Assembly: GCA_965198175.1 (NCBI GenBank)
Contig: OZ240245.1
Location: 160,001-224,000, forward strand
Origin: Candidatus Poribacteria bacterium
Lineage (GTDB): Bacteria; Poribacteria; WGA-4E; PCPOR2b
Direction of reading: 5' to 3'
Length of the DNA: 64,000 bases
The position numbers were made by a program, and so were the translations under genes. Shown one piece after another: positions 26,892 to 60,337 of the stretch (positions within the stretch are counted from its first letter, which is position 1; the number at the start of each line of letters is the position of its first letter). The notes below the pieces were generated by a model. The model ran no database searches and was not told the origin of the DNA. It saw only the letters and a program-made list of their open reading frames with translations.

Positions 26892-26921
26892 CTATCGCAC
26901 TCGCTATTCGATCGCTTGATC
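26892..26921 (-). mobile_element. 30-nt structured mini-element, full copy, abutting a REP arm
   Basis: Reverse complement GATCAAGCGATCGAATAGCGAGTGCGATAG. Confidence 0.8.
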
Positions 26922-26937
26922 GATTCGGAGATTGCTC

Positions 26938-29334
26938 CTACTTCAGGATGGTCATTTTCTGCGTATCAACAGAATCGCCCGCCCTTAAGCTGTAGAAATA
27001 GATGCTACTCGCAGCACGCTCACCTGTACTAGTGCGCCCATCCCAATAGGCTGCCTCTCCTTGCTTGATGTACCGTCCTCGCACTTTCACACCGAGATCT
27101 AAGGTACGAACCAACTGACCAGTGATATCGTAGATTTCAATCGAAACAGGTGTATCCTCTGCCAATTCGTAAGGGATCCAAACGTCTGGATTGAAGGGGT
27201 TAGGGTAACTTTGGAGCAAGCGGGTGTGTAGCGGCGGTGCAGCAGTGGTATTCGGCGGAGTAAAGGCGGGTGTGATACCTAGTACATCAATGCTTGGCGT
27301 TCCCATGAGACCGATAGTATTGACTGGAACTACAGCGTAATAATAGCGCGTATTCTGCGGATCGAAACGAGAATCTTCGACATCAATGTCTTGAAATATG
27401 GTCATGTCTTCAAAGCTGGTGTCGGTCGCATTGACGCGCCCGACAATATTGATATCGCCTTCAGAGATACCGTCGCCATTTCGATCCGCGGCAACCAAGA
27501 CTTCTGATGTATCTTGGAACGGCTGCGGGCTATCATTATCCTGTATAGATGTATACCGTTTTCGAACAATGACGACTTCCCGAATATCGGTCAGATCTTG
27601 AAGTGTCCATTGAACTAACACACCACCGTCGCTCGCTTGTGACACAGTGGGAGTAGAAAGCCCGCCAGCGGGTGGACGACCTGCCATATAGTTCACCGAT
27701 CCACCAAAGGATGCTGGAACGAAACGTCCTCGCACAGATTGTCCCCCCGGAATAATGACCTGTTCAACATCTGGACGTACATTGATTAGGATTAACGTAA
27801 TCTTTTCGATCGCCCCCCCAAAATCTTTGAACGTGATTTGGGCTTCTTGGGAACGATGATAGGTCAATGCTTCTCGAACTTCAGTTGTCCCATCCCGCTT
27901 TTCGACGACAAACTTCGCCCCCCAGCCGCGCAATCCGGTGACTTCATGCCGATCTAACTCCCGTTGAATAGCGTCTCGATCTCCCGCAGAAACCTCGTTC
28001 ATATCGATTGGGGCGAGATCTGCACCATTAACCTTTATTGCAAATTCGTCTATGACGCCATCGGGCTCGAAAACGATATAGCGGGCTGAGAAGGGCTCGG
28101 GCATTGACTCCGAATCGAAGTCTATACGCACGGGGTAGTGCTGATGTACATCGCTGGGATGGATAGCAACAGGCGGGAACCGATGACCGTTGAAATAGTG
28201 CTTCCCATCATCCCGATTATGCGTGAAGTAATTCCATTCGGTGAACGTCTTAAATGCTTCAACAAGCGATGTGCCGCGATTCCTGAAGACGCCTTCGAAG
28301 TTGCCATACTCGCGGTACGAGCCTTCGGTGGCGCCACCGTAAAATTGCCTGACTATATCGACGCCGAACCGCTCTGTCATGTAAAATACAAAAATCACAG
28401 ACCCGTATTCATGGTCGCCGACCCGATTTCTGAGGGCGATGTCCGGTTGAAGAAACCAACGGCGCAACTGACCAGAATAGTAGTTGTAAGAGTCAGTCTC
28501 ACCGATCTCGTCAGGGTCCGGAATGTCGTCAAGATCGTCAATCAACCCGCCGTCGTATACCTTTGATTCTGACCATGTCGCTGACGCCTCCATAAACCAT
28601 GTCGGCATCAGCGCGTTGTAAGCATACTGCACACCGTGAAAAAACTCATGTGCGCACGTCGTTTCAATAAACCGAACGGCTTCCGACTTTCCGAAATACA
28701 GGTGCATGCGTGAGTTGATTGCGAACCATGGAGCGGTGGTTACAACTGTCGACAATACACGTCCATAACTGCTGCTGCTTACTGTCACACCGAGTGCACC
28801 GAACGTAAACAGGTATACGTCGTATTTATGATTGCCTCCATTTTGCTTAACCCAAAAGTCATCGAGCGGTGGCTTATAACCCATCAATTCTATCTGGACA
28901 TGAAATGAGCGCTCCAGCGCATCCGCGCAGATATCAACATAATCGGGAACACCGTTCATCGGTTGGAAGTCGTCGGGCGGTGGCGCGTGGCGACCAACCG
29001 TGGTGTAGTGGAGTCGGAAGTGCGGCGTGTCAAACTTTTTGGGGAGATAGACGGATCCAAAGAGGCTTCCGGGCAAACCAGGTCTAAGGAAAATACCCTG
29101 AAATTCCCTTTGATAGATTGCTGGAAGGTGATGCCAATTTGCAGCAAGGATATTTAAGCTGTCGGTGAAGCACTCTTCGAGTTCGGTGGAAGTATAACTC
29201 GTTTTGAGGTTAATGTACTTTCGAGCGTCTCGAATTGCGCTGTACAACTCCGGATCGGGAGGGAGCGCATCAACAGATAACGCCGTAAGTCCAAAAATGC
29301 CGATAATTGATAAAACCAGTAAGCGCAATGTCAT
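26938..29334 (-). CDS. Secreted zinc metalloprotease (HEXXH, MXAN_6640-like) with C-terminal FlgD/T9SS-like sorting domain
   Basis: Signal peptide; AHEFFH...WFMEASA; YPNPFNPDVWIPY...YWDGR. Confidence 0.8.
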   Translation of the reverse strand: MTLRLLVLSIIGIFGLTALSVDALPPDPELYSAIRDARKYINLKTSYTSTELEECFTDSLNILAANWHHLPAIYQREFQGIFLRPGLPGSLFGSVYLPKKFDTPHFRLHYTTVGRHAPPPDDFQPMNGVPDYVDICADALERSFHVQIELMGYKPPLDDFWVKQNGGNHKYDVYLFTFGALGVTVSSSSYGRVLSTVVTTAPWFAINSRMHLYFGKSEAVRFIETTCAHEFFHGVQYAYNALMPTWFMEASATWSESKVYDGGLIDDLDDIPDPDEIGETDSYNYYSGQLRRWFLQPDIALRNRVGDHEYGSVIFVFYMTERFGVDIVRQFYGGATEGSYREYGNFEGVFRNRGTSLVEAFKTFTEWNYFTHNRDDGKHYFNGHRFPPVAIHPSDVHQHYPVRIDFDSESMPEPFSARYIVFEPDGVIDEFAIKVNGADLAPIDMNEVSAGDRDAIQRELDRHEVTGLRGWGAKFVVEKRDGTTEVREALTYHRSQEAQITFKDFGGAIEKITLILINVRPDVEQVIIPGGQSVRGRFVPASFGGSVNYMAGRPPAGGLSTPTVSQASDGGVLVQWTLQDLTDIREVVIVRKRYTSIQDNDSPQPFQDTSEVLVAADRNGDGISEGDINIVGRVNATDTSFEDMTIFQDIDVEDSRFDPQNTRYYYAVVPVNTIGLMGTPSIDVLGITPAFTPPNTTAAPPLHTRLLQSYPNPFNPDVWIPYELAEDTPVSIEIYDITGQLVRTLDLGVKVRGRYIKQGEAAYWDGRTSTGERAASSIYFYSLRAGDSVDTQKMTILK

Positions 29335-29421
29335 CTTGTTCACGCTATCTTCTCTAAGGAAGAATGTTTGTCTAACCAATTCTTGAGCTATTGAAGTTAA
29401 ACTTCAAATAGTTACACAGAC

Positions 29422-30198
29422 TCAAGTTATCATGCCTTCCCAGGGGCTTGATGCGGACGCATAGAGCTTTCTTGGGATGCGCCCAGCTAAAAACGCCAGA
29501 TGTCCAGCTTCAATCGCTTTCCTCATGGCTTCTGCCATCAACACTGGATGACGCGCCTTGGCAACTGCGGTATTGAGCAAAACGCCATCGCATCCGAGCT
29601 CCATTGCAACGGTTGCATCCGAGGCAATTCCCACGCCGGCATCGACGATGAGGGGAAGGCTAACCCTGTCGCGAATGATCTGGATGTTGTAGGGGTTGCG
29701 AATCCCCATTCCTGAACCGATAGGCGCCCCCAAAGGCATGACAGCCGCACATCCCAGGTCCTCGAGTTTCTTGCAGGTGATTGGATCGTCGTTACAGTAC
29801 GGCAGCACAGTGAATCCGTCTTTGACCAACGTTGCGGCTGCGGATAGCAATTGTTCAACATCGGGAAACAGCGTCTGTTCGTCACCGATGACTTCCAACT
29901 TGATGAGATTCGTTTCGAGCGCTTCCCGTGTTAATTGAGCGGTCAGTATCGCCTCCTTTGCTGTATAACAGCCCGCAGTGTTCGGCAAGATAGTATATCC
30001 GCACTTGTGAAGCATATTAAACAGATTCTCTTCGGCGCCTGATAACTTCACCCGCCGGAGGGCAACTGTGACCATTTCTACACCAGCTATTTCAAGTGCG
30101 CGAAGCATCACATCGAAATTTGGGTAACCCGAAGTCCCCATGATTAATCGGGATTGATAAACGGTGTCGCCAATTTTGAGTCCATTCATCTCTTGCAT
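29422..30198 (-). CDS. thiG: Thiazole synthase
   Basis: [36 protein letters not shown]. Confidence 0.97.
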
Positions 30199-30345
30199 CT
30201 TGTACAGATCCCTGAGCGCATTCACGCAACGATAGATAGCGCATTTTCAGAAAGTGGGCAACCTCCACAAGTCTGTCAAAGCAGACCACGATTGGATACA
30301 ATCAAACAAACTGATAAAAGAGGGTAGCGTCTCATCATCAAATAG

Positions 30346-30957
30346 TTAGAAGTTTCTTAGAAAGAAGAACATGCCAATTGCAAAGATTACCGTGATCGCT
30401 CCCATCACCAAATTAAAAACACAGGAAATCATATTTGTAGGTACGGACGAAATGCGGAAATACTCGTTCATCGCATTGACAACTTCTCTGAGCACAGGTT
30501 GGTGCGCGCGTTGTTTAACCTTGATAATGCCCGTTCCCATCCACGACTGAACAGACACTTGCAGGTCGGCTTCAACAGATGTAAGCCGTATTACGGAGAG
30601 ACTCTCTTCGTAGGAGAACTCTAGTTTCTGGAGAGCCGCTAGCAGCGCCTCACGAAACGACGTATCTGTAACGCCGTACGCCGTGTAACCCTTTAGTTGA
30701 TAGTACATCATTAGAAGAAGAGGCCCAATTATAAGAGGGGTTACCCAATTTATGGGGTTGAAACTGCTTGGTAACGATAACGAGAAGTTCAGTAGAATTA
30801 TTGGAATGAAAACAACGAACAAAATCGACAGCCACCATCTATTTGAAATTAAGAAAGGCCGCTTTGTCAAGATGCCCCGAAGCCCAGTGGTCGAGGAGAA
30901 TATTGCCATAATTCCAAGCAGTATTGGAAACATCAGGTCGTAGAAATCTAGTTGCAT
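30346..30957 (-). CDS. Membrane protein, tandem copy 2
   Basis: About four hydrophobic segments; near-identical to 31027-31650. Confidence 0.8.
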   Translation of the reverse strand: MQLDFYDLMFPILLGIMAIFSSTTGLRGILTKRPFLISNRWWLSILFVVFIPIILLNFSLSLPSSFNPINWVTPLIIGPLLLMMYYQLKGYTAYGVTDTSFREALLAALQKLEFSYEESLSVIRLTSVEADLQVSVQSWMGTGIIKVKQRAHQPVLREVVNAMNEYFRISSVPTNMISCVFNLVMGAITVIFAIGMFFFLRNF

Positions 30958-31026
30958 GTTCTTTCTTATCCTCTCTCCAAAACGCCAAACACAATGAAAG
31001 AACGGAAGCGTTTCGGCATCAAATAG

Positions 31027-31650
31027 TCAGAAATTGCTTCGAAGGAAGAACATGCCAATTGCGAGGATAACTACAATCGCTCCCATCACCAAATCAAAAA
31101 CACAGGAAATCATATTTGTAGGTAGGGACGAAATGCGGAAATACTCGTTCATCGCATTGACAACTTCTCTGAGCACAGGTTGGTGCGCGCGTTGTTTAAC
31201 CTTGATAATGCCCGTTCCCATCCACGACTGAACAGACACTTGCAGGTCGGCTTCAACAGATGTAAGCCGTATTACGGAGAGACTCTCTTCGTAGGAGAAC
31301 TCTAGTTTCTGGAGAGCCGCTAGCAGCGCCTCACGAAACGACGTATCTGTAACGCCGTACGCCGTGTAACCCTTTAGTTGATAGTACATCATTAGAAGAA
31401 GAGGCCCAATTATAAGAGGGGCTACCCAATTTATGGGGTTGAAACTGCTTGGTAACGATAACGAGAAGTTCAGTAGAATTATTGGAATGAAAACAACGAA
31501 CAAAATCGACAGCCACCATCTATTTGAAATTAAGAAAGGCCGCTTTGTCAAGATGCCCCGAAGCCCAGTGGTCAAGGAGAAGATTGCCATAATTCCAAGC
31601 AGAACAGGCAACATAATTGAAATCATCAGGTCGTAATATTCAGGCTTCAT
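31027..31650 (-). CDS. Membrane protein, tandem copy 1
   Basis: AGGAG SD before MKPEYYD; 681-bp offset from the neighbouring copy. Confidence 0.8.
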   Translation of the reverse strand: MKPEYYDLMISIMLPVLLGIMAIFSLTTGLRGILTKRPFLISNRWWLSILFVVFIPIILLNFSLSLPSSFNPINWVAPLIIGPLLLMMYYQLKGYTAYGVTDTSFREALLAALQKLEFSYEESLSVIRLTSVEADLQVSVQSWMGTGIIKVKQRAHQPVLREVVNAMNEYFRISSLPTNMISCVFDLVMGAIVVILAIGMFFLRSNF

Positions 31651-31721
31651 GTTCTTTTCCTCCTTGCAACCAAATACAGTTGCGACGGGGGGTTCCGATA
31701 AAGGTTTCCAACGCCCGTCCA

Positions 31722-31955
31722 TCAATCGGAACGGCGGGTTAGATGCTTCGCATCATCCATTACTTTTAATACGAATCGCAAAGCTTCATTCACAGCTTCG
31801 TCATTGGGAAAAGCGGCGGCAACATCTGGAGCGAGACGGACAATGTTTGTACCGGCGGCATATTGCTGAGCATATTTCCCACGAATCCCATCTTTCAACA
31901 ATGTTTCGTCGTACTCGGTACGTAATTCGTCATTAGGTGCGGTTATGTCAGCCAT
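31722..31955 (-). CDS. BrnA-type antitoxin
   Basis: DELRTEYD...GIRGKY...LAPDVAAAFPNDEAVNEALR; overlaps the brnT stop. Confidence 0.85.
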   Translation of the reverse strand: MADITAPNDELRTEYDETLLKDGIRGKYAQQYAAGTNIVRLAPDVAAAFPNDEAVNEALRFVLKVMDDAKHLTRRSD

Positions 31956-32220
31956 TTTCGTATATTCTCCTTTCTCGACGCTTGGCTTCGCGGGCACTGA
32001 TGATTCGGATTCGTTGTGTGCGATCTGCGTGGGAGATAATGAGCAAGCGTTTTCGCGTTGACTCACCAATCGTAATATATCGGGATTCATCATCCGAATG
32101 ATCCGGGTCCGGAAATGTAAGTGACAATGGGTCGCCAAATGCAGTTGACGCTTCATGAAAAGACACATTATGCTTAGCGAGATTACTTACTGCTTTGTTA
32201 GGATGCCACTCAAATTCCAT
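31948..32220 (-). CDS. brnT: BrnT family ribonuclease toxin (DUF497)
   Basis: MEFEW...K...NLAKH.VSF...RIRIISAR. Confidence 0.93.
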   Translation of the reverse strand: MEFEWHPNKAVSNLAKHNVSFHEASTAFGDPLSLTFPDPDHSDDESRYITIGESTRKRLLIISHADRTQRIRIISAREAKRRERRIYENG

Positions 32221-32452
32221 GTTTACGACTCAGAAAACTCGCTGTCAACCGTGGCTACTTGTTAAACGCGTACCCTCTTCCCAGGGTGGGCAGAGATGTA
32301 CGCAGGGATTTTATTAGTGGTAACCAATTTGCGTAAGCGCTCAATAAGAATGACATTTACTAGTGTTTCATATTGGTACACCTTGGACATGGGAACGCTG
32401 CATGAGTTCTTCGACAACCTTAAGACAGCGTTGAAGTTCCATTTCGGATTAC

Positions 32453-33043
32453 CTATAATTTTTTCATGACTGTCAAGCCATCACTCCCATCAGGGTTCAG
32501 TACAAGTGTATCCTCTGTCCGCTCCCATGTGCCTGTTTCCACCTCATCAAATGTTTCGGTTGTGTAAGCGGAGCCAATCACAGAGTAGTTACCCGGTATC
32601 CGATCCGTGCCGACAAGCACTCCCAGAATATCTTCCACCTGCAGTTGCAGCCGGATAACAATTTCTAATTCCATGATTCCAGCCCCGTGAAACGAGTAAG
32701 AGATGGAGCCATCATAACCAGTAACACCTTCCCCAGACCAAAACGCTGCTATAGCCTGCTCTCGGAGATTTCCCTCCAGAACCGAACCGTCAGCGTCGAG
32801 AAAAGTCCAGTCCTCATCGTCATAATCATCGTATTCGGCAAGCGTCTCTAGCAAACTGAGTCCCTGATAGCTTTCAAGTGCCCAGGTGCCAATCCACTCA
32901 TTATCTTCAGGTTCAATCGGTTCCGGATCTATAATTTCTGCAACCAACGCCTCAAAATTATCGCAGCCGATGAATCCGAAAAGTCCACAAATTCCAATAA
33001 CCCCTAAAAACAGATTCATAACAACTTGTCTAAACATTTTCAT
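32453..33043 (-). CDS. Acidic lipoprotein with lipocalin-like domain
   Basis: FIGC lipobox; IGTW and GTWE...TLVL motifs. Confidence 0.7.
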   Translation of the reverse strand: MKMFRQVVMNLFLGVIGICGLFGFIGCDNFEALVAEIIDPEPIEPEDNEWIGTWALESYQGLSLLETLAEYDDYDDEDWTFLDADGSVLEGNLREQAIAAFWSGEGVTGYDGSISYSFHGAGIMELEIVIRLQLQVEDILGVLVGTDRIPGNYSVIGSAYTTETFDEVETGTWERTEDTLVLNPDGSDGLTVMKKL

Positions 33044-33171
33044 GTCCTCTTCTTCTTAGTATATTTGGTTGGTTTATTTTTAGAGAAAGTGCAAAACACA
33101 CACTACGCATAGTTAGCGCCAGTTTGCTGTCCGTCCATAAAGACGATAGCGATTGCGCCCTTGACGGTGGG

Positions 33172-33339
33172 CTAAATGTATCGGAGTGGTGGTTCAAAGT
33201 GCAGTTCCAGTGCTTCTCCTAGATTGACCAACGCCTCTTCTTCGCTTTCACCTTGACTCGCAATATCAACTTCTAAACATTGGGCAATAAACCAGCCATC
33301 TTCTTGCCATATACTCGCCGTAAACGTGTGAGTCTTCAT
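33172..33339 (-). CDS. Orphan HicB-like antitoxin (short)
   Basis: QEDGWFIAQCLEVDIASQGESEEEALVNLGEALELHF. Confidence 0.8.
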   Translation of the reverse strand: MKTHTFTASIWQEDGWFIAQCLEVDIASQGESEEEALVNLGEALELHFEPPLRYI

Positions 33340-33371
33340 GTTATATTCGATTCCTTCGCTCCCCAAACGCA

Positions 33372-34187
33372 CTACATGTCAGATTCTTCAATCTTATTAT
33401 AAACGTCGCTGCCCATGTTAACCATTTTCTCGCGAATCTCGCGCCAATCGTCCCGAATTTTCTTCCCTTTATCAAGAACAGGGAATATAATCGATACGGG
33501 CGTCTCTTTACACTTGAATTCATATTCCGATTCCCGAAATAGCGCCACGATTTCGTTCCGGCGCTCCAATCCGTTCTCCTCCGGGAACCTTAGTTGAATA
33601 TCGCAGTGGTCATTAAGAAGGTGGAGAATCAGTTGTACGCCCTTAACGCTCTTTGTAACCCAATGTTCGATCTTGCGAGGGATAGGTTTACGGGCGAATA
33701 GTCCATTCCCGTCGCGAATCGGCTCCCAGAATTCGCTGTGTTCTGCGCCGGCTTTCTTCTCGGCTTGGATATCTACTGACGGTTTAACAACATGGTGAAA
33801 GGAAAGTTCATGGTGTTCATTTGCTTGTGCTTCAATGAGATACCATCCGATTTCGCTATCTTGATTTCGCAGGTCGCAAGTGGCCTTCATAAGGTCTTCA
33901 AAATCCTCAGCAACCAATGCAGCAACTGTAGCCTGCTTTAATCGCGCGTAGGCTTCAAGCCTGCCCCAATGATCCCAATCTGCTTTGCCAAACTGGTTCT
34001 CAATTACGAGTGTGCCATCCTCACCTTTAGCAACAATATCTGCCTCGCGCGTACCGACCCTAGATTCCGTCTCCGCATCTTCAAAGTTACCGACTTCAAG
34101 AGCATCGAGCTCAGTGGAGAGGTCTTCCGAGAAATCCTCTTCTCGTCCGTAGATGCCTGAGAGCGGTATTGACTGTTGAAGGTTCAT
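33372..34187 (-). CDS. PD-(D/E)xK-like nuclease-fold protein with DUF4268-like C-terminus
   Basis: E..VG..ADIVA...VIENQFGKADWDHWG. Confidence 0.7.
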   Translation of the reverse strand: MNLQQSIPLSGIYGREEDFSEDLSTELDALEVGNFEDAETESRVGTREADIVAKGEDGTLVIENQFGKADWDHWGRLEAYARLKQATVAALVAEDFEDLMKATCDLRNQDSEIGWYLIEAQANEHHELSFHHVVKPSVDIQAEKKAGAEHSEFWEPIRDGNGLFARKPIPRKIEHWVTKSVKGVQLILHLLNDHCDIQLRFPEENGLERRNEIVALFRESEYEFKCKETPVSIIFPVLDKGKKIRDDWREIREKMVNMGSDVYNKIEESDM

Positions 34188-34270
34188 TTGATTATGATTC
34201 TTCTATTGGGGATGTTCCGGTTGAAACCACCGGGGAAATGTTAAAACCTAAGTCAAGCGACTTGTTCACA

Positions 34271-37200
34271 TCAAAAATCCAGACTCACACCCATCATAAC
34301 CAAGCGCGGCGTACTCCACGAGAGCGGACTCGAATGCTTCTTATTGTTGAGCGGGATACCGTACCGGTCGTATGTGATCGGATCAATCAGGTCATCCAAA
34401 TTTTTAGTGTTGAAGATGTTCCGAATGTCCGCAAAGACGGTGTACGTCATCCCGGAAAGAGCGATTCGCTTGCTAAGAAGCACGTCAACATTGTAAGTTG
34501 GCGGGTAGCGGTTCGAGTTCACGTCAGGTTTGATCGGCGCGTTAGGGTTTGGCGTGAAAGGCAAGCCGCTAGCGTACCTGCCAATGAGGTTGACCGCAGC
34601 ATTGAGCGGCAATTGAATACCCAGTGTTCCGGAGACAATGTGCCGCTGGTCCCAGTCTAAGGGATGACTTTCAGTCACTTCAGGTTGTGCCCGATAATAG
34701 GTCAGGTAGCCCAGATTTCGGCTGGAGCCTTTCCCTTTCGCGACGGAATACGTATAGCTGAACATCCCGGAAACTCGACTCTGCCCCGTGCCCCACTTGC
34801 GAGCTGTGAACTCAAATCCTTGAACCCTTCCGTAAATGTCATTGATAAAATAGCTGTAATCGTTTGTAATGTCGACATGCACACTACTCACAAGGTCGTC
34901 GATATCCTTCGTAAACCCAGTCAGGTCAACGGTTAAGTCATCGGTGAGTTGCTGCGCCACTCCGACTTCGTAGGCGATTGTTTTCTCCGGTTCGAGATCG
35001 GGATTCCCCCTTCTGCGAATGGCGCCCCGCATATCAAAGTAAAGATTTTCGTAGAGATCGTCGCCCCGCGGAATCTGGTAGTAATGCCCGTAAGTAAAGT
35101 GCAACTTCGCCCGATCTGTAATCGGAAACGACATACCGAGGCGTGGGGCGAGCGTCTGTTTAACCGAAGCCTCAGCCGGATTCTTGATGATGGGTAACCC
35201 GACTTTGTAGACGCTTTTATCTAGCTTGATTGTTCCATCTTCGTTGAGTTCAAGCGGATCCAAGGAATCGGAGGGTGAGATTCCATCTGGACTATACAGA
35301 TCATACCGCAATCCCGCATTGACAATCATTCCGGCATACTCCATCTTGTCTTGCGCATATACACTCATGGAGCTAGGCGTCACGTCATAGAACTCCATAT
35401 AGAGGTTTGAACTCCCATAATTTGTCGCTCCGAGATTATAGAGATCGTGCGCCGTAAATCCAACACCTGTCTGGATTTGGTGATTTTCCGTAACTTGGCT
35501 GGAAAAATCCGCTTTCAGTATTGATGTCGTCGAATTACGAGTCGTCCAAGCATTTTCATCACCCGCAATGAAGTAGTTTGTATCGTTGTACGCTTGCTGG
35601 GTCGGGTTTCTAATCCTTCCCTCTTCCTCATTTTCTTCAACAGATTTTTCGGAGTCCCAAGCGTTTTCATCAAACGTTTTGTCCAACGGATCCCACAATT
35701 TCCCCGGTTGATGGCTCTCATAGGAACGATGGAATTGCCCAACCGTCAGCGTGTAGAAGGTGCCTGAGTTGAGATTGTGTGAAAGTTGAACGGACATGCT
35801 CCGCCCATCCCGATTCACCACTGGGATCGCGCTGGGTAAAAAGCGTAGGGCACCGCCATAGGAGTCGGATTCACGTTGATCGAACAACCCACTTGCCGTG
35901 AGTTTAATCTCGGGTGTTACTTCAAACTTGAGTTTGCCCTGAAACGTGTATCCCCTTGCGCTATTATTGGGCAGGTAGCTTTCATCACGCCGCAACTGGC
36001 TGGCGGCGGAAAATGTCAAGCGATTGCCCCATATCGGTCCGCTGAGCGCGAATTCCCCAATATGAGTGGGACGCAAATCGTAGTTTTTCGTCTTGTTGAA
36101 CAACCCACTGTACTGGTCCAAATCCACGATGTAGCCGTCTAACAGTGTCACCTGTTTTTTCTCATAGTCAATAACGGTGCCATCCGCGTCCTGAAAAGGT
36201 TGGCGTGCCATAATGACTTTGCCCGTATCGAGGTTTACTTTGGGTTCACCCGTTTCCGGATCGATAACCGGAAGAAGCGGATTTTTCGTCATGTCCGCAT
36301 AAACACCGGGGAGAATCTCCGTGAATTCTACCTTTGCATCGCCCTCTCGCTCTGCCAACTCGGTAACGGTAATGCCTTCCCCACGATAAGGCGTTTGATA
36401 ATTGTAGGGTTTACCGAGGAAGATGCCTCTGAATGGTTCAAGTGCCACTGGTCGAAAGCCGTTGTCCGGATCGAGCCAAGGACCGTACAGCGGGTCGCCG
36501 TGGTGCTCTCCCCACTGCCCAACGCGATACCGGATTCGACCAGAAAATTTTTGGGTGCCGGCTTTCGTGATGAGATTAATCACGCCGGATTGCGCATCAC
36601 CGTGTTCCGCATTGAATCCACCCGTGATGACTTCCATCTGTTCGATTGCATTCGCGCTGACCTGCACACCCAAGCCTCTGCCAATTGGATCATTAATCGG
36701 GATGCCGTCAATCAGATATTTAATCTCCATCGAACGACCACCACGAATGTGGAGCGTGCCGGTTGCGTTATCCACCGCGACGCCAGCCTGCGTTTCGAGA
36801 ATCCCATTCACGGTGTCACGGGGCATGGCGGCGATATCCTCTGCTTCAATAATCCTCGTGCTTTGCGTAACATCCCGCTTAATCAGCGGTTTAGTTGCTG
36901 TCACCTCTATCTCTTCGAGGGTGATAATCTCAGCAGCATCCAGCGCGAAGTTTAAGGTTGTGGTGAGTCCGGCGAACACCTTCGCACCCATCACAGTCTC
37001 CGAAGCGTAGCCAGTGAGTTCGGCTCTTACATCATAACCTCCCGGTGGGATGTTCGTCATGACAAAATAGCCGTCGTCATTTGTGGTCGCGGTACTGCTT
37101 GTCCCGATAATTTTTACTGTGACATTCGCGAGCGGTGCACTCGCCGCTTCATCGGTGATTATCCCCGAAATCTTGCCGATGATGGCGGCAGAGGCACTAT

Positions 37201-37273
37201 GGATGCCTGCCTCAAGCATAAGCACCGCTATACAAGCCATAAGTATCCAGAAGAAAGGTGTCGTTTTTTTCAT
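34271..37273 (-). CDS. TonB-dependent receptor with carboxypeptidase-regulatory-like N-domain
   Basis: GKISG; HIRGGR plug; GGFNAEHG; GNPDLEPEKT; C-terminal Phe. Confidence 0.93.
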   Translation of the reverse strand: MKKTTPFFWILMACIAVLMLEAGIHSASAAIIGKISGIITDEAASAPLANVTVKIIGTSSTATTNDDGYFVMTNIPPGGYDVRAELTGYASETVMGAKVFAGLTTTLNFALDAAEIITLEEIEVTATKPLIKRDVTQSTRIIEAEDIAAMPRDTVNGILETQAGVAVDNATGTLHIRGGRSMEIKYLIDGIPINDPIGRGLGVQVSANAIEQMEVITGGFNAEHGDAQSGVINLITKAGTQKFSGRIRYRVGQWGEHHGDPLYGPWLDPDNGFRPVALEPFRGIFLGKPYNYQTPYRGEGITVTELAEREGDAKVEFTEILPGVYADMTKNPLLPVIDPETGEPKVNLDTGKVIMARQPFQDADGTVIDYEKKQVTLLDGYIVDLDQYSGLFNKTKNYDLRPTHIGEFALSGPIWGNRLTFSAASQLRRDESYLPNNSARGYTFQGKLKFEVTPEIKLTASGLFDQRESDSYGGALRFLPSAIPVVNRDGRSMSVQLSHNLNSGTFYTLTVGQFHRSYESHQPGKLWDPLDKTFDENAWDSEKSVEENEEEGRIRNPTQQAYNDTNYFIAGDENAWTTRNSTTSILKADFSSQVTENHQIQTGVGFTAHDLYNLGATNYGSSNLYMEFYDVTPSSMSVYAQDKMEYAGMIVNAGLRYDLYSPDGISPSDSLDPLELNEDGTIKLDKSVYKVGLPIIKNPAEASVKQTLAPRLGMSFPITDRAKLHFTYGHYYQIPRGDDLYENLYFDMRGAIRRRGNPDLEPEKTIAYEVGVAQQLTDDLTVDLTGFTKDIDDLVSSVHVDITNDYSYFINDIYGRVQGFEFTARKWGTGQSRVSGMFSYTYSVAKGKGSSRNLGYLTYYRAQPEVTESHPLDWDQRHIVSGTLGIQLPLNAAVNLIGRYASGLPFTPNPNAPIKPDVNSNRYPPTYNVDVLLSKRIALSGMTYTVFADIRNIFNTKNLDDLIDPITYDRYGIPLNNKKHSSPLSWSTPRLVMMGVSLDF

Positions 37274-37357
37274 GGATATCTCTACTGAAAATCAAGCATC
37301 GTGGGTTTTAAAACGCAATGAGTCATGTTTAACTTGAATTTTCAATTCTTGATCCGA

Positions 37358-38160: not shown

Positions 38161-38190
38161 GATCAACTGAGCGAATAGCGAAGGCGATAG
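38161..38190 (+). mobile_element. 30-nt structured mini-element, full copy
   Basis: GATCAACTGAGCGAATAGCGAAGGCGATAG, directly after TGTAG. Confidence 0.8.
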
Positions 38191-49742: not shown

Positions 49743-49833
49743 GTTCAACCGACCGAATAGGGAGGGATCAAGCGAGCGAGTAGCGAGCGCGATAGTCTTC
49801 GCTGGCGATCCGCCCCTATGAGCTCAGTTGATC
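49743..49833 (+). mobile_element. Nested cluster of 30-nt mini-elements
   Basis: Partial copy 49743-49765 interrupted by a full copy 49766-49795; degenerate inverted copy ending at 49833. Confidence 0.8.
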
Positions 49834-50990: not shown

Positions 50991-51149
50991 CCTTTTTCTC
51001 ACTGTGAACGAAACACGAATCGTGAACAGCAAGTCCCAGGCAGTCGTCTAAACTGCTTCTTGAAATCGTGAACTTTGAGTTGCGATTTTCTCACGCCTCA
51101 CATCAATGATGTTTTTTGACGTTTGACCCGCTCCACTCGGTTCAATTGA

Positions 51150-53075
<1,926 letters not shown>

Positions 53076-53220
53076 CTATTCCTCCTGTCAGTAGGGAAAC
53101 AATACCGATCAAAAAAAAACCGTCTTCCAGCATAAGGAAAACGGTGTCCTAAACAGAAAGGATCCCATCGCATAAGAACGAGGATTTCCGATCTGAATCA
53201 ATATTTGTGGGTTAACTCGT

Positions 53221-53312
53221 GTTTTCCTACGCTGGTATTACCCAGGTCAGGTTCAAAGGGTTTGTTCTCAGCTCTCGCCGACCCTTATAATTTAGAGAGA
53301 GCACCCCTAACA
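53221..53312 (-). ncRNA. TPP riboswitch
   Basis: Reverse complement GGGGTGC...GCTGAGA...ACCCTTTGAACCTGACCTGGGTAATACCAGCGTAGGAA, upstream of thiC. Confidence 0.95.
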
Positions 53313-53328
53313 ACCTATACTGCATGCT

Positions 53329-53357
53329 ATAGTACATCATTTGCAGAAAAAAGTCAA
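53329..53357 (-). promoter_or_regulatory. Predicted sigma70 promoter of the thi operon (TTGACT-N17-TACTAT)
   Basis: Immediately upstream of the riboswitch. Confidence 0.65.
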
Positions 53358-53407
53358 GGAAAAGATAATTCAATCGCCTGCCGCCGTAGAGACCGAAGAA
53401 AAGCACA

Positions 53408-54176
53408 TCACGGCTTCATCGGCAAGATGGTGTTTCGAAGCCCGCCCATCAACGCTTTGATTTCGCGCTCACCTAGCGCAACGTCCAATACGGCGAACTC
53501 GTCAATAATACCCCCGAATGTACCGCCCGTCAAGGATTTGTGCCGACCTCCGATGTGCAAATCCGCAGTACGGGGAAAATAGTGACACACACTCTGCCTC
53601 GACGCTACTTCTGACCCATTTCTGTAGATTTTCATGGAATTTTGGCTCGCGCTGCATACAAAGCCCCAGTGTTCCCACCTGCCCAGAGTATCCAAGGGAC
53701 GTTCCAACCTAATCTGTTTTCCACCAAATTGCCAGTGAATAGCGTTAGGTATGGGCTTATTCCACGGGAAGTGCACGGTGAAGCGATCATCTATGTCGGG
53801 TCTCCAATGACCACTTCGGTTAATTGGAACCAAACTGAAAAGGTCGTGATTTTTGACCTCTTCAAGTTTGACCCATGCCACGACGGTCACTTCGCTACTG
53901 GGAACAGACTTCCCAAAATCAGGGACGACGACTGCATCGCCATCTCCACCAAATTGTAGCGCTGTACCAAACTTGCCGGGGACTCGCTTGGGGTGCTCCA
54001 TCAGGTTCCCATCGTGTCCATTGCCAGACGAATCAGTGGCGATATGGTCGTGGTCATCGTCAAAAAGCCACATGGCGACAATCTTCTCTGGACTGATTAT
54101 AGGGGACTGCTTTGCGCATCCGATTGTAAAGATATAGAAACGCAATATATAAAACACACACTCTATTTAGCTTCAT
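53408..54176 (-). pseudogene. LamG-domain lipoprotein with an apparent frameshift in its signal peptide
   Basis: DSSGNGHDG, GKFGTAL, WEHW, GIIDEFAV; the ATG with an AAGGAG SD (54176) is out of frame with the TIGC lipobox. Confidence 0.65.
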
Positions 54177-54343
54177 TTTGGACATCTCCTTTCGTATGGT
54201 GCCGCATGGTCAATGGCGCGGTCCATAACATAGAATTTAAGATTACGCACATCAAACGCTGTGCACTTGGATTTTGCAACTTTAAACACCTTCGAATCCG
54301 TGGCACCGTAGCAATCCCACAGCAAGTTTTTGTAGGTTGGGCA

Positions 54344-54435
54344 GATCAACTGCGAATAGATCAAGCGAACGAATAGTGAGTGCGATAGTTTTTCCGAAAC
54401 CCAACGATCAAGCGAGCGAATAGCGAGTGCGATAG
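54344..54435 (+). mobile_element. Three mini-element copies within and beside a GTAGGTTGGG...GAAACCCAAC REP
   Basis: Partial 54344-54358; full 54359-54388; full 54406-54435. Confidence 0.82.
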
Positions 54436-54840
54436 AGTCCTCATTGCTGCAAAAATAACGACGATTCCGAACCTCCTATCACTCGCCCGCCTTAAGTATG
54501 ATTAACAAAAACATCTCTTTACTTGACGCTTGATAAATCAACTTATCTACTATCAACGCCTCGGAAGGCACATCCGAGACACACGAGGCTTTGTAACAGT
54601 CGATTGACGAAGTTGAATTGTCGCGCGGGCTGGCAGGGCTGCTGGGTCGTATTATGGATAATAAAAAGATCGGGTTTGCTAACTAGCAATAGGGTTGGCT
54701 TCGTTGCCGAATATGATGCGTTCGCTGGGTTCGTCGAATTGCAAGGCGACTCAATACCGATACTCATAATGGCAAGCGTTGCTCACAATTAAGGACGAAC
54801 AAGATAAGTGGGGGTTAGGAGGTTAAGATTCGTTGAGGCA

Positions 54841-55062
54841 TCAGGCGCGTTTGAAATCTGTCCAATTTATACCTAATTGACGAATACATGCGCGAATTGT
54901 TCCAATTGGCATATCGTTAGTTCCGTGATCAGGAATAACAGTCGCGCTTTCAGTAATGGGGTTGAACCATTTTCGATGAGAGCCTCGTGTTCTGTGTTTC
55001 GTTTCTTGACAACCGAGTTTTTTAAGTTTACGCGACATTTCTCGATATGTCATAGTGCTCAC
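54841..55062 (-). CDS. hicA: HicA family toxin
   Basis: LKKLG...RGSHRKW...VIPDHG...GTIRACIRQLG. Confidence 0.9.
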   Translation of the reverse strand: MSTMTYREMSRKLKKLGCQETKHRTRGSHRKWFNPITESATVIPDHGTNDMPIGTIRACIRQLGINWTDFKRA

Positions 55063-55378
55063 GATTTAGAGTTGCTTGAAAGACGTAAGGCACGGGCGAG
55101 TCATCAGCCCCTTGTAATTTTGGGGTCATTGTCTGAAACGGGTGAAGTGCTGGTTCTTGTTTTGACTCATGAATAATGTTGTCAGGCAATGTACGTCCCA
55201 AATCTTCATATAGTTCAAATGTTGCGATGAATGCGTCTTTGACATTATTTAGCGCCTCATCTACCGAATGCCCGTCCGTTATCAATTCAGGCAATTCCTC
55301 ACATGTTACGGTATAACCGCCTTCCGGCTCCGGGTTCAACCTCACAGTAATGCAATATACTGTGGTTGGGACGTTCAC
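55028..55378 (-). CDS. hicB: HicB family antitoxin
   Basis: AAGGAG SD before GTG 55378; EGGYTVTCEELPELITDG.SVDEAL.NVKDA. Confidence 0.88.
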   Translation of the reverse strand: MNVPTTVYCITVRLNPEPEGGYTVTCEELPELITDGHSVDEALNNVKDAFIATFELYEDLGRTLPDNIIHESKQEPALHPFQTMTPKLQGADDSPVPYVFQATLNREHYDISRNVA

Positions 55379-55633
55379 TGTCAAATCTCCTTTTTGGGTA
55401 GGTTTCGGTATATAAATATGATCTGTTACAATGCCAAAGGCGTACAAATTTGCGTCGCCTTTCGGTGGGGATTATACCATTGGGATCGAGACATTGTCAA
55501 GAGATACGCACGATGCAATATCAAGATTTTGTAGGTTGGGTTAAGCGTGTATTTCCAACCCCGTTACTGCACCCGTACCTCGTCCCAATTTCTTTACGAT
55601 GTCCTAAAAAAAATTCGCAGAGCGTAACCCAAC

Positions 55634-55663
55634 GATCAACTGAGCGTATAGCGAAGGCGATAG
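55634..55663 (+). mobile_element. 30-nt mini-element, full copy, at the end of a REP-like element (55531-55633)
   Basis: GATCAACTGAGCGTATAGCGAAGGCGATAG, directly after GTAACCCAAC. Confidence 0.8.
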
Positions 55664-56166
55664 TTTTCTCCGAAATTTCCAAATTCGTCCCGCCCGGATT
55701 TTTTGGGAATTTCGATGGGAATTGAACGGTGGACAGTCAGATTGGGATCTGTTAATCTAAATGTATCGCATTCGTTGAGGAGTGTCACGGTCGTCAACCC
55801 CGGCGACCGCCCTCAACCAAATACATGATTAGATAAAATAATTAACTCAATGTTCGTTTTCGGATTTCTGAGGAGTGTTCCCGATGACGCTTAGGAAACC
55901 GAACATAAGGAATAAAAAGTGTTCCAAATCCTTCGACTGCTGAGGTCACTACGGTACGCAAAGAACGCTTGGTGCACTGAGGTTCCGTGCTGCCTCTCGC
56001 TTGCACATAGGGGCGGTACGGCATTAACCATGTTGAATCCTATTACGAGGGGCACTTAAAGAGGAATCTCAATATGTCCGAACACGAGGCAAAACAACTT
56101 GAAAAAAAGAACTGCCCTACCTGTGTGTATGTTTACTGATGGAATCACAATAGAAAAAGGCACAAA

Positions 56167-56583
56167 ATGATGAAGAATGCAAAAGCACTGGCGATGCTCC
56201 CATACGTTTTGATTGCAGGTTGTGCAGCCTCTACGTCGTCACCTACTTTGAATGAGGTGATGGACTCATGGATGGGCCATCATGTTTCAGAAGTTATACG
56301 GGCATGGGGACCGGCTGATCGGCTCGCTGAAGATGGTGCAGGTGGGAAGATTTACATCTGGATAACGCCAGGAATTTCACCTTCACCACCACGACGGGTG
56401 TGGGTTACAGAATGGAACCCTGTGCTAGGGCAGTGGGAAGGGCGATGGAAAGAAGAGTCCACCGGAATATCAGGTGCTATTCGAAAAAGCCTTGAGCGTG
56501 AGCTCGCTCGTTCACGCCGAAAGGAATTTTTTGTGCGTCCAGACGGTATAATTTATTGGTATCGCACTGGATACGAAGAATGA
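56167..56583 (+). CDS. Lipoprotein, hypothetical
   Basis: IAGC lipobox; SWMG...VIRAWGP motif. Confidence 0.7.
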   Translation: MMKNAKALAMLPYVLIAGCAASTSSPTLNEVMDSWMGHHVSEVIRAWGPADRLAEDGAGGKIYIWITPGISPSPPRRVWVTEWNPVLGQWEGRWKEESTGISGAIRKSLERELARSRRKEFFVRPDGIIYWYRTGYEE

Positions 56584-56918
56584 CACCTCACCATGCGAGC
56601 ATAGGATATTTGCTGATTCGACAAAACACAAAAATCGCGGTGCGTCGCAATTTGCCGAATATTTAGGCAAGGTGAGGAATTACTCCAGCCACAGCATAAA
56701 ACTACAGGGGACACAGGTTGGAACCAGTTTTGCGGGTCGGTTACGCTCTCTGCCACGACGAAAAGCGGACCGAAGGTTTGTACAGTAATGTAGGTGGATC
56801 TGCACCTCGGTGCCAGTGTCGATTAGCGCCGACCGCATTCAACAGTCGTATCGGCTGAGATGTTCTATTCGAAATAAGGAGGTATACTATGAGCGAAGTT
56901 ATGCAAATTGAAGTTTTT

Positions 56919-57011
56919 GTAGGTTGGGTTGAGCCAACGGCGAAACCCAACGCTTTATGATTCACATGTGGATTGGATGTTGGATTTCACTATCGCACAA
57001 CCCAACCTTAC
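56919..57011. repeat. Inverted pair of REP-like palindromes (uninterrupted reference copy)
   Basis: GTAGGTTGGGTTGAGC...GCGAAACCCAAC and GTTGGATTTCAC...CAACCCAACCTTAC. Confidence 0.75.
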
Positions 57012-57180
57012 TACTCCCATGTCTGCTGAATGATGGTTCAATGTCTCATCTGTGCGCACGCTAGCACAATTACCACCGCAGACCGTAAGAAACTATATAC
57101 ATGTTAAGTATGCAGGGATAAACCTACCCTACAGCAACGCTTTCAGATTCCATACCCTCCAATCCATCGGTTCTATCGTT

Positions 57181-58134
57181 TCAGTCTGCGTTTTCCCCTT
57201 CACTGTCCGTCGGCGCAGGCAGGGCGTTCGCTCCATTGCCATCCGTCTTCTGCTCAGGCGCTTTAAGTGCAAGTGCCAACTTCTGCAGAACCCCAACAAG
57301 CTCCGCACTATCACCGCCAATAGCGTTCTGGTCGGGTGCTCTCAGCGCAAGCGTCAGCCGTTCCAATACCGCAACAAGCTGAGGAGGAGACAGGTTCTCA
57401 GCAACCGGTACTTCCACCGCCGATAGCTCTCGCAGGTTCTTAAAAGTTTGCGTCAACGAATTCGTGAGCAGTTGATATCCTTTCACGTCAAGCGATTTCT
57501 TCTCCAATATTCGGTTGGTTCGCTCCGCATGTTTGGCTAAAAGCGCCATCTGCTCCTCTTTAGAGGTTAACGGAATGTCGCTCACTGTCTGCTTATACGC
57601 CTCCCGAGCTTCGCGCCACAGCGCGCCGTACTTCTTTTCAGGCCACCGCGCCGAACCCGGCTTCAGATACGCTACCCGCGGAATCAGAGCATCACGTAGT
57701 CCCTGAGTCCCCATCGCGTCCTTATGCGCCAATCGATTCATAGTCTCGTCTGACCACATCAACTCTGTGACTGCATCAGATGTGGAAATGCCTTGCGCAT
57801 GTGCACGGACAAAATACTCGCGGTGCGTATCTGTAATGAAAGACGAAATGTACCAACCCAACTCTTCCCTTACTATATCTCTTATTTTATCCAGATAATA
57901 CGAATCCAACTCGCTAATATCGCCAAAATCGTCGTCTTCGTCCTCACCATATATATCCACAATTATCTCCAGCGCATAACGCTGAATTCGTTCAACAACT
58001 GCATTAGCAAGCTCATGACCGCTGCCCGTATTAAACAACTCTTTTACATCTGACCTGAGCTCGGAAAGTCCTTTCTTCTCGGCATCCCCAAGAAGTGCCG
58101 CCTTAAGTGTAGTCTTCGGCTTTTCTGTCGCCAT
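57181..58134 (-). CDS. Hypothetical helical protein with a DUF2280-like segment
   Basis: GAGG SD; KKYGALWREAREAY...SDIPLTSK pattern. Confidence 0.6.
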   Translation of the reverse strand: MATEKPKTTLKAALLGDAEKKGLSELRSDVKELFNTGSGHELANAVVERIQRYALEIIVDIYGEDEDDDFGDISELDSYYLDKIRDIVREELGWYISSFITDTHREYFVRAHAQGISTSDAVTELMWSDETMNRLAHKDAMGTQGLRDALIPRVAYLKPGSARWPEKKYGALWREAREAYKQTVSDIPLTSKEEQMALLAKHAERTNRILEKKSLDVKGYQLLTNSLTQTFKNLRELSAVEVPVAENLSPPQLVAVLERLTLALRAPDQNAIGGDSAELVGVLQKLALALKAPEQKTDGNGANALPAPTDSEGENAD

Positions 58135-58387
58135 TATTGCACCTCGTCTTTTAGGCAAGTTTGATTTTTTCATAGTAAGATTCCGCGTCCCGTCCGATGA
58201 AAACCACGCTAAGATCCGACCACGACTGGATTGTCGTCTGTTTTCTATTTAAATCACAACTGCGCGCAACTATGAAAACTATGAATATTTTGAACAACTG
58301 TGAAGTTGCAATATCCCTATTGTTAAAATTTGCCATTGCCTGACCTGTTTTGCAACCCTTTTTGCAATTGCTTTTAGGTTAGGTTGA

Positions 58388-58493
58388 GATCAACCGACCG
58401 AATAGTGAGGGATCAACTGAGCGGATAGATCAAGTGACCGAATAGGAAACGCGATAGAGATGTTAGGCGATAGTCTTCTGGTGACTGCGGTAG
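58388..58493 (+). mobile_element. Triple-nested mini-element cluster
   Basis: Starts at 58388, 58411 and 58428; ends at 58457 (GCGATAG), 58473 (AGGCGATAG) and 58493 (GCGGTAG). Confidence 0.82.
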
Positions 58494-58615
58494 TTTTTTC
58501 CGACAGCACCGCTTCACCTACCGTGAATTTCCCCTTTTTTTATAGACTGTAAAAACTGTAATTTTTTAGTCCCAACTTTGTCATTCACCACATCAAGTTT
58601 GGAGGAAGAAAAACA

Positions 58616-58644
58616 TTGACAATCCAATCGACTCTAGTTAAAGT
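58616..58644 (+). promoter_or_regulatory. Predicted sigma70 promoter of guaA (TTGACA-N17-TAAAGT)
   Basis: Consensus -35 with 17-nt spacer. Confidence 0.55.
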
Positions 58645-58691
58645 ATATCTAGTGTTGTTTCGATAATACCCTTGCCTAAGGATGAGGAGCA

Positions 58692-60230
58692 ATGAACCGC
58701 GACACCATTGTCGTTTTAGATTTTGGCTCACAGTATACGCAGTTAATTGCGAGGCGCATTCGAGAACAGAACGTGTATTGTGAAATTCATCCATACCACA
58801 TTTCCGTTGATCGTTTAGTTTCGATGCGACCTAAGGGAATTGTTTTGTCCGGTGGGCCCTCAAGCGTTTACGCGCCAGATGCTCCTCTTCCCGATACCAG
58901 AATTTTTGCGCTTGGTGTTCCGATTCTAGGCATCTGTTACGGCATGCAGGTCGTCGCACATTTGTTAAATGGAGGCAAGGTACACCCAGCCGTTGAACGT
59001 GAATACGGTTCGGCAGAGCTGACTGTTGATTTGCCGATTCCGCTGTTTGCCAATCTGCGAGGTCAGTTGAAGGTGTGGATGAGCCATGGCGATCGAATCG
59101 AGGTTCCGCCGCAAGGATTCCATCGAATCGCGCACACGAGCAACTCACCAATTGCGGCGATGGGCGATATAGATCGGGATATCTATGGTTTGCAGTTCCA
59201 TCCAGAGGTTGTTCATACTATAGATGACAACCAGATCCTTTCGAACTTTGTCCTTGAGATTTGTGGGTGCAGCAAGGGATGGACGATGAAATCCTTTGTC
59301 GTCGAGGCAACAGAGAAAATCCGAAGGCAGATTGAAGGAAATCGCGTTTTATGCGCTGTGAGCGGCGGTGTTGATTCAACCGTCCTTGCAGTGTTGCTTC
59401 AGCGTGCCATCGGCGAGGCGCTTGTTTGCGTTTTCGTGAACAATGGCTTGTTGCGAAATAATGAAGCGGAAAGCGTGCTTGCAGATTTTCGGAAGCTTGG
59501 AATTGAGGTGCATTATATTGATGCGACAGATCGATTCCTGAGTTGCCTTGCGAACGTTGATAGTCCCGAAGAGAAGCGCAAGCGAATCGGGTATCAGTTT
59601 ATCGAAGTTTTTAGGGACGAGTTGGGAACGCTAGGGCAGATCGACTTCCTTGCGCAGGGCACCCTCTACCCTGATGTCATCGAAAGTGTGTCCGTCAAAG
59701 GACCTTCTGCGACAATCAAGACCCATCATAATGTTGGTGGATTGCCCAAAGATTTACCCTTCAAACTCATCGAACCTTTCCGAGAGTTATTCAAAGACGA
59801 AGTGCGAGCAGTAGGACTTGAGTTAGACATCCCGAAATCAATCCTTGGACGACACCCATTTCCGGGCCCCGGTCTAGCTGTCCGGGTGATTGGCACTGTT
59901 ACTCAGAAGCGGCTAGATATTCTGCGTGAAGCAGATGAAATCTTCATTTCGGAGATTAAGAAAGCTGGGTTGTATGATGAGATTTGGCAAGCGTTGACGG
60001 TGCTTCTGCCAGTCAAGAGCGTCGGTGTGATGGGTGATGAGCGAACCTACGAAAACGTGCTAGCACTCCGCGCTGTTACGAGCACCGATGCCATGACCGC
60101 GGATTGGGCGCGAATTCCTGACGAAGTATTGGCTGTAATCTCCAATCGCATCATCAACGAGGTGCAGGGCATTAACCGCGTTGTTTACGATATTAGCTCA
60201 AAACCACCGAGCACAATTGAGTGGGAGTGA
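58692..60230 (+). CDS. guaA: GMP synthase (glutamine-hydrolysing)
   Basis: [37 protein letters not shown]. Confidence 0.99.
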
Positions 60231-60337
60231 TCAACCGATCAAGCGACTGGATAAAGAGCGATCAACCGAGTGAATAACGAGGGCGATAGTCTTCACCGGC
60301 ATTAAAACTATTGCGTTCCCTATTCGCTCACTTGAAC
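60229..60337. mobile_element. Cluster of four mini-element copies
   Basis: Partials 60229-60236 and 60237-60259; full 60260-60289; inverted full 60308-60337. Confidence 0.82.

Follow-up and report, generated by a model that had tools for sequence, protein, structure and literature searches.

A very small dispersed DNA element with covarying base pairs in two genera of Candidatus Poribacteria, and its possible movement as a folded single strand

How does a sequence of only 30 nucleotides (nt) come to be scattered between the genes of a bacterium in many variants that all appear to preserve the same fold? The question is raised by a stretch of 64,000 nt from the genome of a Candidatus Poribacteria bacterium (contig OZ240245.1, positions 160,001 to 224,000; by the window we mean this whole stretch), for which an initial annotation, made from the letters alone, pointed to about 15 full or partial copies of a 30-nt element (the 30-mer) on both strands, with variable positions that change in pairs, and proposed that it is a very small non-autonomous mobile element. 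The observation is now confirmed, well beyond the window, and the interpretation is supported. The explanation we favor, with a probability of roughly 0.55, is that the copies make up a family of non-autonomous mobile DNA elements of very small size, which is restricted to two genera of Candidatus Poribacteria and is moved as folded single-stranded DNA by a protein acting in trans.

When the window was scanned with the motif GATCAANNGANNGRRTANNGANNGCGATAG (30 nt, at most 3 mismatches), nine full copies were recovered, every one at a position listed in the initial annotation and with 0–2 mismatches, while a match occurred in none of 100 dinucleotide shuffles of the window (0 expected); the six partial copies that complete the original count are present on reading of the sequence. 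The genome to which the window belongs (G000), a single contig of 4.92 Mb with 48.9% G+C, contains 123 exact copies of the 30-mer and 259 copies at up to 3 mismatches, the latter representing 175 distinct sequences. Across these 259 copies, 22 positions of the core are nearly invariant and 8 are variable, the consensus being GATCAA-ab-GA-cd-GRATA-d'c'-GA-b'a'-GCGATAG. The loop proposed as GAATA is thus retained, in the somewhat broader form GRATA.

As to the fold, the eight variable positions make up four pairs, and each of the four is paired in 92–99% of the copies genome-wide: pair 7/23 by 176 Watson-Crick and 62 G/T combinations, pair 8/22 by 231 and 9, pair 11/19 by 226 and 12, and pair 12/18 by 237 and 20, respectively. 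Mutual information amounts to 0.34–1.06 bit inside the pairs and to no more than 0.26 bit between other variable columns. The wobbles are one-sided, with G7.T23 found 61 times versus a single A7.C23, and T12.G18 found 20 times versus a single C12.A18, and therefore the strand that reads GATCAA is the folding strand. An independent alignment of 147 sequences, nine from the window and 138 from other Candidatus Poribacteria metagenome-assembled genomes (MAGs), whose members were picked by a pattern with the paired columns left free, gives the same picture: 97.3% of its cells are paired versus 79.8% in shuffles (none of 500 shuffles was as high), double-change cells number 229 versus 39.6 in shuffles, and slid controls are paired in 14–48% of cells. 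What is kept on the GATCAA strand is four base pairs, and not the letters at eight positions, and the proposal of two 2-bp stems flanking GA/GA, maintained through compensatory changes, holds both in this genome and in others. Columns 2–4 (ATC) and 26–28 (GAT) are invariant in all copies, hence there is no covariation signal there.

The single-stranded fold that had been envisaged stands in that the pairs covary, and does not stand as a hairpin stable on its own, as nearest-neighbor DNA energies for the 30-mer alone are −0.2 to −1 kcal/mol, no better than for shuffles; for a 45-nt form found in the other genus, the value is −6.4 kcal/mol. As the fold of the 30-mer has too little stability of its own, a protein most likely recognizes the pairing, via its shape.

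Covariation accompanied by G.U-type wobbles on one strand is also typical of RNA structure, and the 30-mer could be a structured RNA motif selected transcript by transcript (a protein-binding hairpin with tandem G.A pairs, a stabilizer, or a terminator), whose spread would be secondary. In its favor, copy density is 1.8 times higher between convergent genes (37 copies) than between divergent genes (36 copies), and one contig from an RNA library spans an upstream gene into the copy at window position 60260, a hint too weak to count as transcription, as it is a contig and DNA carry-over is possible. Although crude open reading frames (ORFs) take up 85% of the genome, 212 of the 259 copies are located outside them. 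However, of the 139 copies in co-directional gaps, 84 are oriented with the genes and 55 against them, and this mixed orientation disfavors a role at the level of the transcript. The fold energy is marginal by DNA parameters, the left parts and nests described below are insertion debris and not functional units, the distribution is all-or-none by genus, and a search of Rfam at E values up to 1 over window positions 54200–60500 produced no match. We thus regard an RNA motif as improbable. At the gathering score, Rfam likewise has no match to the element in the window, its sole match being a TPP riboswitch elsewhere (RF00059, 53207–53318, minus strand, 70.8 bits). No bias of copy orientation with the direction of replication could be shown, the cumulative GC skew being noisy (minimum at 1.12 Mb, maximum at 2.46 Mb).

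Does the element move, and if so, what is the unit that moves? The clearest evidence comes from the second genus, where four genomes (G036, G042, G053, and G033) are 96–98% identical over about 11 kb. Comparing them provides three clean pairs of filled and empty sites, and in each a 37-nt unit, the 30-nt core with a 7-nt tail, replaces 3 nt, with no target duplication. In the first event, read on the element's strand, GCG is replaced (...CAGCGGG/GCG/ACAGGT) at a GCCCC..GGGGC hairpin. In the second, GCA is replaced (...GGGTGC/GCA/CTGCGC, same strand) at the loop edge of a GTAG-tagged hairpin. In the third, it is GCG at positions 24–26 of a resident copy of the element itself, a copy that is intact in another genome. 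In all three, the sequence of the empty site agrees with the consensus of the repeat family to which it belongs, and the filled site therefore represents the derived state. Two further identical copies of the 37-mer inserted in the third event are present in G053, along with three that carry one mismatch, tail included. The unit, core plus tail, is copied to new sites, and the mobility originally suggested is in this way borne out, as it is by nested copies with downstream remainders and by differences between congeneric genomes, both described below. A second region of the same genus is only 76–94% identical between genomes, and the intergenic regions of G000 are too diverged from those of G002 and G003 to provide clean sites.

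The 30 nt originally delimited therefore correspond to the core, and the mobile unit is larger by a tail of 7–8 nt. In the window's genus the tail is of the TCTT type, and T[CT]TT is kept downstream of the core across the 259 copies. In the other genus the tail is AGATCCC, 7 nt long (8 nt in one variant), and GG often precedes the core, so that the unit ends in GGGATC...GATCCC, a short terminal palindrome with 64.5% of cells paired. The statement that the element lacks terminal inverted repeats accordingly applies to G000 and not to the other genus.

A second repeat of G000 is a frequent host of the 30-mer. This is a classical repetitive extragenic palindrome (REP) with a GTAG tag, GTAGGTTGGGT(T/A)GAGC ... 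AACCCAAC, whose loop is short, about 90 nt long, or filled by the 30-mer. Its head, GTAGGTTGGG, occurs exactly 221 times in the genome, and in the window, on the plus strand, at 54332–54341, 55531–55540, and 56919–56928. Copies of the 30-mer lie just inside a GTAG REP in 63 of 259 cases and directly after its 3' arm in another 24, and 41 of 155 complete GTAG REPs have a 30-mer copy. The element lands at or beside the loops of hairpin repeats, be they GTAG REPs, members of other hairpin families, or existing copies of itself.

The element could also spread with no enzyme of its own, namely by gene conversion between carrier repeats or by template switching at hairpins, with the covariation perhaps in part reflecting arm-to-arm copying. 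The 87 of 259 copies in or right after a GTAG REP would supply the short flanking homology, the inversion of a spacer between inverted arms in G000 versus G001 (site 340907) points to recombination between arms, the same two genomes differ by the gain or loss of 17-nt units between direct repeats, and no enzyme has been found. However, the targets of the three clean events all differ in sequence and have no flanks in common, the ends of the inserted unit are identical each time, and the unit of the third event recurs unchanged, with its tail, in G053. Arm-to-arm copying, moreover, predicts perfect pairs and not 61 one-sided G.T wobbles. Spread by such a route is, in our view, unlikely.

Other repeats of the second genus were also encountered. 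The hairpin families GCCCCAGAGGGGC, GCACTCCAGAGGAGTGC, and GTAGGGTGGGCACCGCCCACC (L008, L035, L036, L042, and L048) are often broken by the 37-nt unit. An element of about 260 nt resembles a miniature inverted-repeat transposable element (MITE), in that its ends are inverted (CTTAGAGCCTGTTTGAA...) and CTTAG is found on either side of it. Within it are two hairpin repeats into which the 37-nt unit inserts; the element is located at about 17100–17470 of L218 (G036), is also present in L221 and L222, and is absent from L220 (G033). A 72-nt GC-rich element, another small mobile repeat of this genus, is found in three of the genomes represented by L218, L220, L221, and L222, is absent from G036, and adjoins ACGCTCTGCG (alignment columns 5498–5597).

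Insertion of the element into its own copies leaves a record that can be read in single genomes. Nesting yields arrays in which left parts of 17 and 23 nt precede a full copy and right parts follow it; within a nest, the copy inside is younger than the one around it. Where loci from other MAGs have a 23-nt left part, the tail of the inner copy is immediately followed by a (G)RTAG remainder in 23 of 25 contexts; where there is no left part, this is so in only 14 of 146. For left parts of 17 or 18 nt, the left part and the first remainder found downstream pair with each other in four of six cases. In G000, of 270 arrays, 206 are single copies and 64 are direct nests, and left parts are stacked upstream of full copies at a spacing of 17 nt in 25 cases, 18 nt in 5, and 23 nt, the commonest, in 38. 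The window itself offers several examples, listed here along with the other copies, and with reference to G001, a congeneric genome about 92% identical to G000:

26892..26921, minus strand: full 30-nt core, 0 mismatches; absent at the matching G001 site 186844 (52-nt difference)
38161..38190, plus strand: full core with TGTAG directly upstream, 0 mismatches; identical in G001 (site 198100)
49743..49765, plus strand: 23-nt 5' partial copy (positions 1–23), stacked on the next copy; by reading of the sequence
49766..49795, plus strand: full core followed by a TCTT-type tail, 0 mismatches
54332..54341, plus strand: GTAG REP head GTAGGTTGGG of a carrier hairpin with the next copies in its loop
54344..54358, plus strand: irregular 15-nt 5' partial copy; by reading of the sequence
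54359..54388, plus strand: full core within the REP loop, 0 mismatches
54397..54405, plus strand: 3' arm AAACCCAAC of the GTAG REP headed at 54332
54406..54435, plus strand: full core directly 3' of the REP arm ACCCAAC, 0 mismatches
55634..55663, plus strand: full core directly 3' of ACCCAAC (REP head at 55531–55540), 1 mismatch
58388..58410, plus strand: 23-nt partial copy, the 5' part of an outer copy broken after position 23
58411..58427, plus strand: 17-nt partial copy, through the loop
58428..58457, plus strand: full core, innermost of the nest, 1 mismatch
58467..58478, plus strand: GCGATAG (58467–58473) plus TCTTC, the 3' remainder of the broken outer copy
60229..60259, plus strand: 5' partial copies of 8 nt (60229–60236) and 23 nt (60237–60259); other partials at the G001 site
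60260..60289, plus strand: full core, left arm of a tail-to-tail doublet, 0 mismatches
60290..60307, no strand: 18-nt doublet spacer consisting of two tails
60308..60337, minus strand: full core, right arm of the doublet, 2 mismatches; the arms share 21 of 30 letters

The arrangement of the nest at 58388–58478 recurs at genome position 4114435. The abundance of copies shortened at one end (347 left parts versus 248 right parts in G000, at no more than one mismatch), along with the strand-specific fold, would also suit movement through an RNA copy and a reverse transcriptase, a route reportedly once considered for the small dispersed repeats of Nostoc. The shortening, however, is explained by nesting, the other ends being found downstream; the mixed orientation to genes disfavors transcription from host promoters, and nothing links a reverse transcriptase to the element, although no search aimed at one was made. 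A retro route is thus very improbable.

Turnover is also apparent between G000 and G001, where the number of left-half seeds differs at 10 of 21 anchored clusters, although these sites are older and untidy. The differences comprise copies present in one genome only, 17–18-nt units gained or lost, an inverted spacer, and a variant swap. At the window copy starting at 60260, the G001 counterpart differs at two covarying pairs, therefore this copy was replaced. The inverted spacer is a 41-nt segment between two nearly identical inverted copies (G000 positions 340984–341097).

As to the distribution of the element, a one-genome-per-species scan gave at least 147 loci, and among the matches listed all were from Candidatus Poribacteria MAGs. 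When 61 relatives were scanned, all four genomes of the window's own genus had 228–246 copies, and all ten genomes of a second genus, from a different family, had 687–1440 copies. Copies in the hundreds are thus restricted to the 14 genomes of these two genera, and the picture is the same across 176 genomes of the phylum. A search with a covariance model gave about 100 scored matches in each of the same 14 genomes, and for diverged relatives in other genera it gave only two borderline hits, with E values of 0.003–0.009. G024, from a genus otherwise free of copies, has 21 copies on four contigs (C72, C83, C91, and C116), 11 of them within 5.5 kb, and these are probably mis-binned contigs from the other genus. 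A few copies are also present in G030, G006, and G016. The plasmid collection contains no match to the doublet. Searches of the literature found no description of the element: on REPs in Poribacteria they gave one unrelated review, and among the titles and abstracts listed on Poribacteria together with REP doublets that form hairpins (REPINs), REP-associated tyrosine transposases (RAYTs), and related subjects, none concerned repeats of Poribacteria.

What protein might move such an element? Our best guess is a HUH/Y1 single-strand transposase of the RAYT/IS200 kind: hairpins in single-stranded DNA are the substrates of such enzymes, one is encoded in this genome, and the targets are hairpin loops. 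The element would be recognized and moved as a folded single DNA strand by a protein supplied in trans, and this protein may recognize not only the helical shape but also the invariant loop, the G.A steps, and the flanks. The candidate gene, encoding P0001 (180 amino acids), is intact and located at G000:C1:1436691–1437230 on the minus strand (L149:1357–1899, minus strand). It is a RAYT by its match to NF047646 (195 bits, cut-off 80), it has the GTAG REP (GTAGGTTGGGT...AACCCAAC) on both sides, and the 10-kb segment with the highest density of the 30-mer (10 copies) contains it. A second RAYT-like gene, at G000:C1:1596907–1597170 on the plus strand (L148:1486–1749), is truncated, its match to the family profile ending at position 89 of 146, and probably represents a pseudogene; the 300 nt upstream of it contain three copies of the 30-mer.

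A number of observations weigh against the explanation we favor. No enzyme is tied to the element, and the phyletic patterns of RAYT and of the element do not match. Orthologues of P0001 at no less than 65% identity are found in five copy-free genomes, four from another genus and one from another family, and no P0001 orthologue at 50% identity or above was found in G002 and G003, despite about 240 copies of the element in each. Many genomes that lack the element likewise have the second RAYT lineage, represented in G000 by the pseudogene, and in nine of nine loci the repeat that flanks RAYT is the GTAG REP and not the 30-mer. The clean insertion events are only three, all within one stretch of about 260 nt. 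HUH single-strand transposition is not known to delete or duplicate target bases, and a loss of three of them is not a known part of that mechanism. In G000, a clean remainder is seen in only one of 18 left-part contexts, and two sites of presence/absence between G000 and G001 (186844 and 365564) do not fit a simple replacement of three bases. Co-occurrence with HUH/RAYT genes, which the initial annotation proposed to look for, is thus seen in part, as an intact RAYT gene in the densest cluster of copies, and is not seen in the tracking of the element by either lineage, and the two RAYT lineages were rejected as element-specific partners. The family-level profile PF01797 is matched in 54 of the 61 relatives, so it does not discriminate. 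The GTAG REP family and the RAYT gene as context had been missed initially.

Would it then be simpler to view the 30-mer as the plain cognate REP or REPIN of the genome's RAYT, as in Pseudomonas or E. coli? The resemblance is considerable. REPs and REPINs are imperfect extragenic hairpins of 20–40 nt in hundreds of copies (Bertels and Rainey 2011, PMC3116915; Di Nocera et al. 2013, PMC3733652), and the latter paper also describes REP heterodimers and insertion into palindromes. The 30-mer, too, is a short, imperfect, extragenic hairpin in hundreds of copies, in a genome that has a RAYT gene, situated inside the densest cluster of copies; it inserts into other palindromes, and it forms inverted doublets, including those with unequal arms. 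Among neighbor pairs less than 500 nt apart, 34 are tail-to-tail (convergent) and 4 are head-to-head (divergent), with a spacer of 18–20 nt in 19 of the 34, and the arms of convergent doublets usually differ at the free positions, having 21–24 of 30 letters in common. However, the element has no GTAG/CGTC tag, its ends being GATCAA and GCGATAG, and RTAG precedes only 6 of 259 copies; the GTAG before copies in the other genus is, judging by one filled/empty case (event 2), part of the interrupted target hairpin. Inverted doublets are not its main form, most copies being singlets or direct self-nests. The inverted repeat beside RAYT in the nine loci, which represent four genera, is GTAGGTTGGGT, and the 30-mer is found near a RAYT gene in no genera other than the two that possess the element in any case. 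The 16-nt head motif of the GTAG REP (at most one mismatch) is present in 54 of 61 relatives, in contrast to the 14 genomes with the 30-mer in hundreds, and RAYT orthologues and the element do not co-occur: the element is co-inherited with neither of the RAYT lineages tested. It also replaces three target bases, and its variation is confined to four covarying pairs. All in all, a cognate REP appears quite unlikely.

A more tentative proposal, to which we give clearly less weight than to movement as a folded strand by a protein in trans, is that of a mode of DNA movement not described before. An enzyme other than RAYT would cut and paste, or copy, the 37-nt single-hairpin unit into hairpin loops by an exchange for GCR, making the element a parasite of REPs that carries its own next target (GCG at positions 24–26), and its presence in two genera of sponge symbionts from different families would be the result of transfer between them.

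How does the element compare to other known systems? Besides the REPs/REPINs, the closest are the small dispersed repeats (SDRs) of Nostoc, SDR1–8, which Elhai et al. reportedly described in 2008 as sequences of 21–27 nt with compensatory changes, self-nesting, precise short targets, and a narrow range; we know of no enzyme for them. Very small size, dispersal, a fold kept by compensatory change, self-nesting, a precise short target, and a narrow taxonomic range are, by these accounts, all features in common. Unlike the SDRs, the element is found in Poribacteria and not in cyanobacteria, and it is placed beside them by description and not by sequence; here filled and empty sites define the 37-nt unit, the replacement of three bases, and a preference for hairpin loops. 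The IS200/IS605 elements, mobilized by HUH Y1 enzymes, possess two different end hairpins and usually their own gene, and insert beside a target of 4–5 nt with no loss of bases. The element resembles these in having a hairpin on one strand, in a target read on that strand, and in the lack of target duplication, and it differs in consisting of one hairpin, with no gene and with three bases lost. In common with MITEs, it is non-autonomous, intergenic, and repeated. However, at 37 nt versus 70–300 nt it is much smaller, it makes no target duplication, and terminal inverted repeats are absent in the window's genus and only 4–6 nt long in the other (about 15–30 bp in MITEs). The element thus works like REPs/REPINs and like the Nostoc SDRs, yet it fails three defining features of REP-RAYT systems and those of MITEs.

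At 37 nt, the element ranks with the smallest mobile DNA units for which exact ends and a target have been defined. Its 22 fixed bases plus shape, versus eight free bases, amount to a natural mutational scan of protein-hairpin recognition. The replacement of three bases at hairpin loops without duplication does not fit textbook transposition, and it offers a handle for finding the enzyme. In public sequencing runs, contigs of all holders of the element stop at the repeats; the element breaks short-read assemblies of Poribacteria and is a possible strain marker. The window also contains a tandem repeat with a 41-nt unit (2.1 copies, 88% matches) at 5452–5537.

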